DNA of 1,427 bases, taken from NCBI RefSeq assembly GCF_003334335.1, contig NZ_QOWQ01000107.1; one strand, given 5' to 3'. A program made the position numbers and the translations under genes. Below are positions 1 through 1,427 of the stretch, piece by piece. The notes under the pieces were generated by a model that saw only the letters and a program-made list of their open reading frames with translations, searched no databases and was not told where the DNA came from. Source of the DNA: Escherichia coli. GTDB taxonomy: Bacteria > Pseudomonadota > Gammaproteobacteria > Enterobacterales > Enterobacteriaceae. How positions within the stretch are numbered: the stretch's first letter is position 1; every line of letters begins with the position of its first letter.

Positions 1-131
1 TCTGCGCGAGTGTGCGGGGATAATCAAAAACGATACACACCGGGGTTTACCGCGTTAACGGAGCGTGGCGTTGTCCCCTCATGGTCGCTCGTCCGGTGCG
101 ATGGTGGAAGAAACTGGATTTTGTTGCAACT

Positions 132-144
132 GATAATCATTATC
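132..144. repeat. Perfect 6-bp-arm palindrome GATAAT-C-ATTATC just upstream of cosQ
   Basis: Seen in sequence: gataatcattatc reads as an inverted repeat around a central C. I recall the same motif at the equivalent place near the lambda right end. Its function is unknown to me. Confidence 0.4.
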
Positions 145-152
145 ATTTTCTC

Positions 153-159
153 GGGTCCT
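153..159 (+). other. cosQ-like element (GGGTCCT), needed in lambda to terminate packaging at the downstream cos
   Basis: Seen in sequence: GGGTCCT lies exactly 30 nt upstream of the predicted top-strand nick (182/183). Established knowledge (from memory): this is the same heptamer and spacing as lambda cosQ. Confidence 0.6.
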
Positions 160-182
160 TTCCGGCGATCCGGGCCGTTACG

Positions 183-194
183 GGGCGGCGACCT
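183..194 (+). other. cosN cohesive-end sequence GGGCGGCGACCT; predicted nicks between 182/183 (top strand) and 194/195 (bottom strand), giving 12-nt 5' overhangs
   Basis: Seen in sequence: exact 12-mer GGGCGGCGACCT, preceded by CCGTTACG and followed by CGCGG. Established knowledge: this is the lambda cohesive end, with the flanks as I recall them for the lambda right and left termini. Confidence 0.85.
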
Positions 195-231
195 CGCGGA
201 TTTTCACTATTTATGAAAATTTTCCGGGATC

Positions 232-243
232 CATGTCCGGTTT
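232..243 (-). repeat. R3-like putative small-subunit binding element (AAACCGGACATG on the minus strand)
   Basis: Seen in sequence: catgtccggttt is the exact reverse complement of the 12-mer at 319-330. It sits at offset 50-61 from the left end, close to lambda R3 as I recall it. Confidence 0.5.
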
Positions 244-252
244 CTCTGCAAG

Positions 253-285
253 TTAACCATATGAAAAATATAAAAACATGCTTTC
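253..285. promoter_or_regulatory. AT-rich, A-tract-containing spacer; candidate IHF-binding/bending site analogous to lambda I1
   Basis: Seen in sequence: ttaaccatatgaaaaatataaaaacatgctttc lies between the first and second repeat copies. The minus strand reads CATGTTTTTATATTTTTCAT, reminiscent of the lambda I1 segment as I recall it. I could not find a clean match to the IHF consensus WATCAANNNNTTR. Confidence 0.3.
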
Positions 286-288
286 CAT

Positions 289-300
289 GAACCGGACATG
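289..300 (+). repeat. R2-like putative small-subunit binding element (GAACCGGACATG, 11/12 match)
   Basis: Seen in sequence: the 11-mer AACCGGACATG (290-300) is identical to 320-330. Offset from the left end is 107-118. Confidence 0.5.
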
Positions 301-318
301 CGCAAAAAATAGACACTA

Positions 319-330
319 AAACCGGACATG
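319..330 (+). repeat. R1-like putative small-subunit binding element (AAACCGGACATG), with an adjacent partial inverted copy (ACCGGTTTTG, 331-340)
   Basis: Seen in sequence: aaaccggacatg, immediately followed by accggttttg, so AAAACCGG (318-325) and CCGGTTTT (332-339) form an 8-bp inverted repeat around ACATGA. Confidence 0.5.
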
Positions 331-368
331 ACCGGTTTTGTTGTGATTGTGAGGTGAGAGTTTTTGCG

Positions 369-377
369 AGGTGAGGA
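369..377 (+). promoter_or_regulatory. Shine-Dalgarno region for the small terminase gene (GAGGTGAGGA)
   Basis: Seen in sequence: purine-rich GAGG at 369-372, 5 nt upstream of the GTG at 378. An in-frame TGA at 372-374 closes the frame upstream, so GTG 378 is the first possible start. Confidence 0.55.
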
Positions 378-887
378 GTGGCTACGCAGACTGAAGTTGC
401 CAGGCATTTAAGTCTGACCGATCGCCAGCTTCGCAGATTGCAGAAATTGCCGGGTGCCCCGATATCGAATAAGCGAGGGCAACTGGATCTGGATGCCTGG
501 CGCGATTTTTACATATCGTATCTGAGAAGAAGTAAAAACGATGTGCCTGATGGCGATAGCGAAGACGACTATGAGGAGAAATTGCTTATTGCCAGATGGG
601 AACTGACAGCAGAACAGGCTGTTACACAGCAGTTAAAAAATGAGGTGTCAAAAGGAAAACTTATTGACACCGGGTTCTGTATTTTTGCCCTCAGCAAGCT
701 GGCAATGGCGTTATCCAGTACGCTTGATTCCATCCCTTTATCCATGCAGCGACAGTTTCCTGATTTAACACCGCGCCATCTTGACCATCTGAAAACCCTT
801 ATTGCGAAGGGGGCAAATCAGTGTGCGCGGGCGGGGGATAAATTACCGGATTTACTCGATGAATATATCAGAGCAACAACTGAATAA
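378..887 (+). CDS. nu1: Terminase small subunit (lambda Nu1 family), 169 aa, GTG start; N-terminal winged-HTH DNA-binding domain divergent from lambda, C-terminal large-subunit-interaction region conserved
   Basis: Complete ORF in the supplied track. Its C-terminal half (GFCIFALSKLAMALSSTLDSIPLSMQRQFPDLTPRHLDHLK...LPDLLDEYI) aligns by eye to lambda Nu1 as I recall it (AFCTFVLSRIAGEIASILDGLPLSVQRRFPELENRHVDFLK...IPGLLSEYI). It lies directly after cos and overlaps the gpA-like gene as in lambda. The N-terminus (EVARHLSLTDRQLRRL) fits an HTH pattern but differs in sequence from lambda. Confidence 0.9.
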   Translation: MATQTEVARHLSLTDRQLRRLQKLPGAPISNKRGQLDLDAWRDFYISYLRRSKNDVPDGDSEDDYEEKLLIARWELTAEQAVTQQLKNEVSKGKLIDTGFCIFALSKLAMALSSTLDSIPLSMQRQFPDLTPRHLDHLKTLIAKGANQCARAGDKLPDLLDEYIRATTE

Positions 888-1427
888 TATGATGAGTGCT
901 GTCACAACAGCATTACAGCCCCTGATAAGGGCATTGCCGGTGACGCCAGTTGAATGGGCTGATCAAAATTATTATCTGCCTAAAGAATCTTCATATGGTG
1001 AGGGAGAATGGAAAACGCTGCCGTTCCAGATCGCCATCATGAACAGCATGGGGAATGATCAGATCCGGACTGTTAATCTGATTAAATCTGCCCGTGTTGG
1101 CTATACAAAGATGTTGCTAGGAGTCGCCGGGTATTTTATTGAGCATAAATCCCGAAACAGTCTGCTTTTTCAGCCCACGGATTCTGCCGCTGAAGATTTT
1201 ATGAAGTCTCACGTGGAGGCGACGATTCGGGACGTGCCATGCCTGAAAGATCTTTCCCCGTGGCTGGGACGTAAACATCGTGACAATACTCTCACGCTGA
1301 AACGCTTTTCATCGGGGGTGGGCTTCTGGTGCCTGGGTGGTGCGGCAGCAAAAAACTACCGTGAAAAATCCGTGGACGTGGTCTGCTATGACGAACTTTC
1401 CTCGTTCGAGCCGGATGTCGAAAAAGA
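859..1427 (+). CDS. A: Terminase large subunit (lambda gpA family), N-terminal 189 codons; 3' end lies beyond the window
   Basis: My translation from ATG 859 (frame +2 relative to the small subunit gene) gives MNISEQQLNNMMSAVTTALQPLIRALPVTPVEWADQNYYLPKESSYGEGEWKTLPFQIAIMNSMGNDQIRTVNLIKSARVGYTKMLLGV..., open to the window end. This matches lambda gpA as I recall it (MNISNSQ...VEWADANYYLPKESAYQEGRWETLPFQRAIMNAMGSDYIREVNVVKSARVGYSKMLLGV), including Y46, K76 and K84 of the KSARVGY(S/T)K ATP-binding segment (nt 1084-1110). The ORF is absent from the supplied track, presumably because it has no stop codon in the window. Confidence 0.92.
   Translation, partial: MNISEQQLNNMMSAVTTALQPLIRALPVTPVEWADQNYYLPKESSYGEGEWKTLPFQIAIMNSMGNDQIRTVNLIKSARVGYTKMLLGVAGYFIEHKSRNSLLFQPTDSAAEDFMKSHVEATIRDVPCLKDLSPWLGRKHRDNTLTLKRFSSGVGFWCLGGAAAKNYREKSVDVVCYDELSSFEPDVEK

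Follow-up and report, generated by a model that had tools for sequence, protein, structure and literature searches.

A lambda-like small terminase subunit with a predicted winged helix-turn-helix domain exchanged together with its cosB

The cos region and its genes

The DNA analysed here, 1,427 nt long and referred to as the window, is a cos region from a phage or prophage of the lambdoid group. Escherichia phages PhiR12_1 to PhiR12_5 share 98.7% identity with it, and their annotation of the two genes is 'terminase subunit Nu1' for the first and 'terminase DNA packaging protein A' for the second. The cosN cohesive-end sequence, GGGCGGCGACCT, is on the plus strand at 183 to 194 and is the same as in lambda and phage 21; in this cosN region, lambda bp 1-45 have a 96% match to the window. 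The gene for the small terminase subunit (TerS, Nu1-like, 169 aa) is at 378 to 887 on the plus strand and is recognised as an ORF and by Pfam, PHROG, and RefSeq/GenBank. Its end is overlapped by 29 nt by the start of the large terminase subunit gene (TerL, gpA-like; 859 to 1427, plus strand), which runs off the window and which in relatives has a downstream counterpart matching PF05876 and PF20454. The order of cosN, TerS, and an overlapping gpA-type TerL is also kept in the relatives.

The oligomerisation and TerL-binding part of TerS matches Pfam Phage_Nu1 (PF07471), with aa 49-150 (522 to 827, plus strand) aligned to model positions 62-163 at E = 1.4e-18. When database relatives are aligned, three N-terminal classes are seen on a similar Nu1 C-terminal half. 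The lambda/21 class has a GGGKG wing, which is SKGSKG in phage 21. The N15 class reads LLNKSDMA…PVE(K/R)RGREV. The class to which the window TerS belongs reads MATQxEVAxHL…LPGAPxxx(K/R)RGxxDxDAW and is referred to here as the MATQ class.

Predicted TerS binding sites in cosB

Four matches to AACCGGACATG, one of them with one mismatch, are present in the window, against 0.01 expected by chance. An R3-like predicted TerS site without mismatches is on the minus strand at 232 to 242 (cos bp 50-60), which is the R3 position of lambda and 21. An R2-like predicted site, inverted relative to R3, was found by the site scan on the plus strand at 290 to 300 (cos bp 108-118). Counted from cosN, the positions of both are those annotated for phage 21, and in lambda R3 and R2 are mutually inverted, as they are in the window (PMC9026076). 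The same scan identified an R1-like site at 320 to 337, composed of AACCGGACATG (320 to 330, plus strand) overlapping an inverted copy with one mismatch, AACCGGTCATG (327 to 337, minus strand). Over 319 to 339, the site at the R1 position reads as the near-palindrome AAACCGG-A-CATG-A-CCGGTTT and is thereby present in both orientations, unlike lambda R1, which has a single orientation that is the same as that of R3. At two related loci, L093 and L098, the inverted copy is instead at -26 from the start codon.

These sites differ from those of the known systems. The lambda R site is CGTTTCC(T/G)TTCT, and the R sites of phage 21, whose gp1 is of the lambda sequence class, are unrelated to AACCGGA. 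The cosB of N15 is simple, with a single site (PMC4669245), compared with three or four sites in the window. A full-text literature search for the site sequence returned unrelated primer matches only, and no description of AACCGGA-type TerS sites was found in the literature searched.

Between R3 and R2, at the I1 position, there is a possible IHF site on the minus strand at 254 to 266, with two mismatches to WATCAANNNNTTR, a match that is not above chance in the consensus scan. At the homologous place in L086 and L087 the IHF consensus is perfect, as judged by eye.

The AACCGGA core is upstream of the TerS gene in at least 33 of the 37 MATQ-type loci examined and was not found in a few of the most distant of them. 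Distant members with glycine-rich wings, such as L100 and L139-L147, have GAACCGGAAGCGG at -27. These IMG/VR metagenome loci have one or two AACCGGA sites within 260 nt upstream, 21-27 nt before the TerS start, which suggests an arrangement that is cosB-like or pac-like and simpler than the three-site layout of lambda.

In GenBank PV340549, a 'hypothetical protein' of 40 aa is annotated over the repeats of cosB, on the minus strand (window 207-329, locus L001 3207-3329). As this ORF covers the predicted TerS binding sites, it is probably a spurious call.

Predicted fold of the N-terminal domain

The first 55 residues of TerS are predicted to be a MerR-like winged helix-turn-helix (HTH), with a helix at residues 4-10, a recognition helix at 15 to 22 or 23, a wing at about 28-37, and a helix at 38-54. 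In the AlphaFold2 (AF2) model of these residues, which was made with 14 relatives in the alignment and has a pLDDT of 87, the first and last helices have these limits, the second is at 15-22, and residues 2 and 36 are joined by a beta bridge. The predicted topology of strand, helix-turn-helix, beta-hairpin wing, and helix superposes on solved members of the MerR and Nu1 DNA-binding domain type. The fold is thus predicted to be the same as that of the lambda Nu1 DNA-binding domain, residues 1-68 (PDB 1J9I, 6HN7 chain B, 7LW0), and the highest TM-score in a Foldseek search of the PDB, 0.75, is to 6hn7_B, which is lambda Nu1 residues 1-98. Because the domain is so small, the 55-residue model gave no significant Foldseek E-value against the PDB and the search is usable for TM-scores only. 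Chain A of 6HN7 is the PICI protein RppC, a satellite protein that redirects TerS, a context other than that of the window protein.

The predicted recognition helix (420 to 446, plus strand) comprises residues 15-23, DRQLRRLQK, and includes R20; it was placed from the AF2 helix, covariation with the site, and hhalign, which pairs it with the lambda alpha2 helix, residues 17-24. In lambda Nu1 these residues are the recognition helix, residues 31-39 are the wing, and K35 has been proposed to make a minor-groove contact (PMC9026076). The predicted wing, P28 to D39 (PISNKRGQLDLD), is at 459 to 494 on the plus strand, based on alignment and the AF2 model. Taken together, the hhalign alignment of the HTH and the predicted fold place PISNKRGQLD at the wing.

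A first-pass annotation had pointed to a glycine-rich GGGKG stretch after the HTH of lambda Nu1 and had matched it to PISNKRGQ in the window protein, with the basic residues kept and the glycine-rich loop absent. This agrees with what was found. Residues 27-41 of lambda Nu1 read MPVLRGGGKGNEVLY, and the codons at nt 459-482 confirm that residues 28-35 are PISNKRGQ, with K32 and R33. That this segment occupies the wing position is supported, by profile-profile alignment and the predicted fold, to within a residue or so, the register relative to lambda being uncertain by about one residue as two hhalign alignments differ. The only glycines in residues 1-70 are G26, G34, and G59, so there is no GGGKG-like loop hidden elsewhere in the N-terminus.

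Glycine content of the wing

The lambda Nu1 wing, VLRGGGKGNEVLY, has four glycines and that of the window, PISNKRGQLD, has one. When anchored from proline to aspartate (P28; the invariant Asp is D39 here and D42 in lambda), the window wing falls short of that of lambda by about 3 residues. The suggestion that the wing is built differently therefore stands with regard to its length, its glycines, and the retention of a basic tip. It does not stand as a local change to a loop, since the comparisons presented below point to exchange of the whole domain.

The glycine content of the wing is labile across the family. Among 138 representatives, the commonest residues at positions 31-35 are K-G-R-G-G. 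When glycines are counted at positions 32, 34, and 35 in 135 representatives, there is one in 36%, two in 27%, and three in 35%. The PGAP/W41 subclade, though small, has members with one, two, and three glycines. In close relatives G34 is invariant and R33 is present in at least 90%, with I29, S30, N31, and K32 variable. 'NKRG' was therefore rejected as the marker of a subfamily, a possibility that the first-pass annotation had raised for checking. Nor is the wing linked to the repeat type, a question also raised there, because the AACCGGA core is common to glycine-rich and glycine-poor wings and the variable base of the site follows residue 20.

The GGGKG loop (lambda residues 32-36), which was formerly regarded as a putative nucleotide-binding loop, does not define the TerS family, since its place is taken by SKGSKG in phage 21 and by EKRGRE in N15. 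With two glycines, the phage 21 gp1 wing indicates that these residues vary even within the lambda class. N15 gp1 (168 aa, compared with 169 aa for the window protein) is also a lambda-like TerS without GGGKG. Its wing, PVEKRGREVFFD (P-V-E-K-R-G-R-E-V-F-F-D), has the same proline-to-aspartate length and the same KRG motif as P-I-S-N-K-R-G-Q-L-D-L-D in the window, although its HTH family is different (LLNKSDMAxSxGIS...), with hhalign giving no more than 24% against the MATQ class.

It could be argued that loss of the glycine-rich loop is a real functional change, affecting ATP-dependent regulation or the geometry of DNA bending, and that the wing marks a functionally distinct subfamily. The reduction to one glycine and the shortening of the wing are in keeping with this. 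Older literature also ties the gpNu1 domain to ATP, in that ATP stabilises binding by the DNA-binding domain according to the part of PMC2366019 that cites de Beer 2002. However, wing glycines vary freely among relatives that have the same AACCGGA core, and the whole range from one to three is spanned by PGAP/W41 alone. The N15 TerS, with its similar KRG wing, packages lambda DNA efficiently, and swaps of the wing between lambda and 21, as well as K35R, have no phenotype in lambda (PMC9026076). A P-loop-like motif is also absent from the window protein. A functional change of this kind is thus considered unlikely. A separate reading of the NKRGQ segment as a P-loop was rejected on the absence of GxxxxGK[ST].

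A separate and widespread sequence family

PHROG 57 (terminase small subunit) spans aa 1-169 of the window TerS; the first 55 aa alone match it at E = 8e-10, and there is also a match to phrog_1790. An NCBIfam search of TerS gave no match. The window protein itself has no significant match to the Pfam HTH families, including the MerR and HTH_17 (excisionase-type) winged HTH proteins, which are transcription factors. Among 41 diverse MATQ-type relatives, HTH_17 is matched in 12 (E <= 0.001) and Phage_Nu1 in 16. A profile of aa 1-55 found 504 representatives, clustered at 50% identity (E <= 1e-3), and in nearly all of these the MATQ domain begins at residue 1 of a protein of 150-200 aa. Together with the Phage_Nu1 and HTH_17 matches, the 504 clusters identify the MATQ domain as a widespread small-terminase DNA-binding domain. 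Residues 1-55, as judged from these searches, are a distinct family that is remotely related to the lambda domain and is not a one-off.

Relationship to the lambda domain is not apparent at the level of simple sequence matches. Positions 1-61 of the Phage_Nu1 model, which represent the lambda DNA-binding domain, do not align with TerS aa 1-48, and the window domain is about 13 residues shorter than that of lambda. Searches of PDB sequences by phmmer with the whole TerS and with a 14-sequence profile of aa 1-55 gave chance-level matches only, and no solved structure of the MATQ domain class was found by PDB sequence or profile search. When hhalign was run with this shallow profile, the probability was 21% against the lambda class and 1% against the N15 class. 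These observations would suit a non-homologous replacement, in which the N-terminal domain would consist of a plain HTH and an unstructured linker, and PISNKRGQ would not be equivalent to the lambda wing. Against the lambda-type profile, a deep MATQ-class profile gives a probability of 89% with E = 2e-6 over the HTH, and a replacement of that sort is very unlikely. The remote homology of the MATQ domain to that of lambda is seen only in profile-profile comparison and in the broader PHROG 57.

The start codon

The TerS ORF starts with GTG at 378-380. The codon at 372-374, in frame upstream, is TGA, so the ORF could not extend upstream and the GTG is the first possible start. This TGA, which ends the upstream frame, forms the last three bases of a Shine-Dalgarno-like GAGGTGA on the plus strand at 368 to 374, and GAGGTGA is likewise found ahead of the GTG start codons of L088, L090, and L091. 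At the shared MATQ position the start codon is ATG in L086, L087, L089, L092, and many more distant loci, and it is GTG in L088, L090, L091, L093, and L113-L118. The residues M1, A2, T3, and Q4 are invariant among relatives down to 33% identity. RefSeq (WP_000235436.1, E. coli O104:H4) and GenBank annotate the identical start.

The GTG at 378, which had been noted in the first-pass annotation, can on this evidence be taken as the genuine start codon, unlike the ATG of lambda Nu1, but it is unremarkable. The view that the true start is a TTG further downstream (codon 21 at 438 or codon 24 at 447), or that the gene is a decaying prophage remnant, can draw on GTG being a minority start codon and on the many database entries of this protein that are truncated fragments, but it is hardly credible, given that either TTG start would remove the helix-turn-helix, that MATQ is conserved from the same codon, and that the gene is intact in PhiR12_1 to PhiR12_5, which are inducible and form plaques.

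Exchange and distribution of the module

Comparison with PhiR5_1, which has a GGGKG-type TerS, identified the limits of the exchanged module. There is 95% identity to PhiR5_1 over window positions 1-229 and 75% over 663-1427, with no DNA similarity at 230-662. Similarity resumes at 663, which is inside the TerS gene at approximately residue 96. The break between 229 and 663 indicates that cosB and TerS residues 1-95 (230 to 662, plus strand) are one swapped unit, as would be expected of a packaging-specificity cassette. Stx1a-converting phages, whose Nu1 is of the lambda type and identical to that of lambda, match the window at 1-227 only, at 94-95%. The mosaic boundary at about 227/229 is sharp and is directly after the cosN-proximal segment.

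The module is present in 1186 of 5426 complete E. coli genomes (22%), including O104:H4 strains, with a median of two copies per positive genome. In IMG/VR there are 446 related loci. The first scan of viral contigs yielded 80 loci, all 99% identical, and the divergent loci were drawn from further scans. Among isolated-phage records, only 13 have the MATQ domain. Isolated phages with this domain class include the Aeromonas phage phiARM81ld and its relatives and the Pseudomonas phages LPPA33 and Y8. With Aeromonas and Pseudomonas phages among its carriers, the family extends well beyond the Enterobacteriaceae.

Residue 20 of the recognition helix and the base that follows the core

The base after the AACCGGA core is C for every protein with Arg20, these being the window protein and those of L088, L090, L091, L115, and L101. 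The last of these is an independent Arg20 lineage with a glycine-rich wing. With Asp, Asn, Lys, Ser, or Thr as residue 20, the base is A. The site form that accompanies Arg20 is ACCGGACAT, and among loci L086-L147 the A-type site forms are ACCGGAAAT, ACCGGAAGT, and ACCGGAAGC. Since AACCGGA is shared across wing types and the next base covaries with residue 20, we infer from these few independent lineages that the repeat type follows the recognition helix and not the wing.

Proposed mechanism and significance

It is likely that 378 to 500 encodes the MerR-like winged-HTH domain of a lambda-like TerS, beginning at a GTG start, belonging to a distinct family, and swapped together with its cognate cosB. 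Such a domain would have a helix that reads AACCGGACATG and a short KRG wing in which the loss of glycines is neutral or a matter of fine-tuning. A dimer of the TerS winged HTH would dock on R3 and R2 in their inverted arrangement and would probably span an IHF bend; the IHF site for such a bend matches the consensus perfectly in L086 and L087 and is degenerate in the window. Once docked, TerS would anchor the large subunit at cosN.

At the sites themselves, the recognition helix is expected to read AACCGGA(C), with Arg20 contacting the C:G pair after AACCGGA, as the covariation in a small number of independent lineages suggests. PISNKRGQLD would form a short beta-hairpin wing in which the invariant G34 provides the turn. 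K32 and R33, at the tip of the wing, may take the minor-groove role proposed for K35 of lambda, and the loss of the other wing glycines would be neutral, or would fine-tune a loop that is labile in any case.

Exchange of the DNA-binding domain with its cosB is the standard route to new packaging specificity in lambda-like phages. Phage 21 gp1 is the classic case in which the TerS domain and cosB covary, giving a separate packaging specificity. Here, the exchanged module is flanked on the left by a cosN identical to that of lambda and on the right by the Nu1-type C-terminal half of TerS and a gpA-type large subunit. The missing glycine loop is a by-product of this modular exchange of the DNA-binding domain and its cosB. 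Like the GTG start, it is real but ordinary, a glycine-poor KRG wing being already known from N15.

The absence of the loop is therefore no peculiarity of one terminase, and the domain class is very common in enterobacterial prophages. A more far-reaching proposal, which is tentative and somewhat short of an even chance, is that the MATQ domain represents an uncharacterised lambda-like packaging specificity with a predictable code. According to this proposal, the HTH reads AACCGGA, residue 20 sets the next base (Arg for C:G; Asp, Asn, and others for A:T), and the short basic wing makes a sequence-independent minor-groove contact. Studies of its structure or binding would place a new specificity class beside those of lambda, 21, and N15, and would put the rule that associates Arg20 with C to the test. 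If the residue 20 code is true, cross-packaging between cos prophages and satellites would be predictable in approximately one fifth of E. coli genomes.
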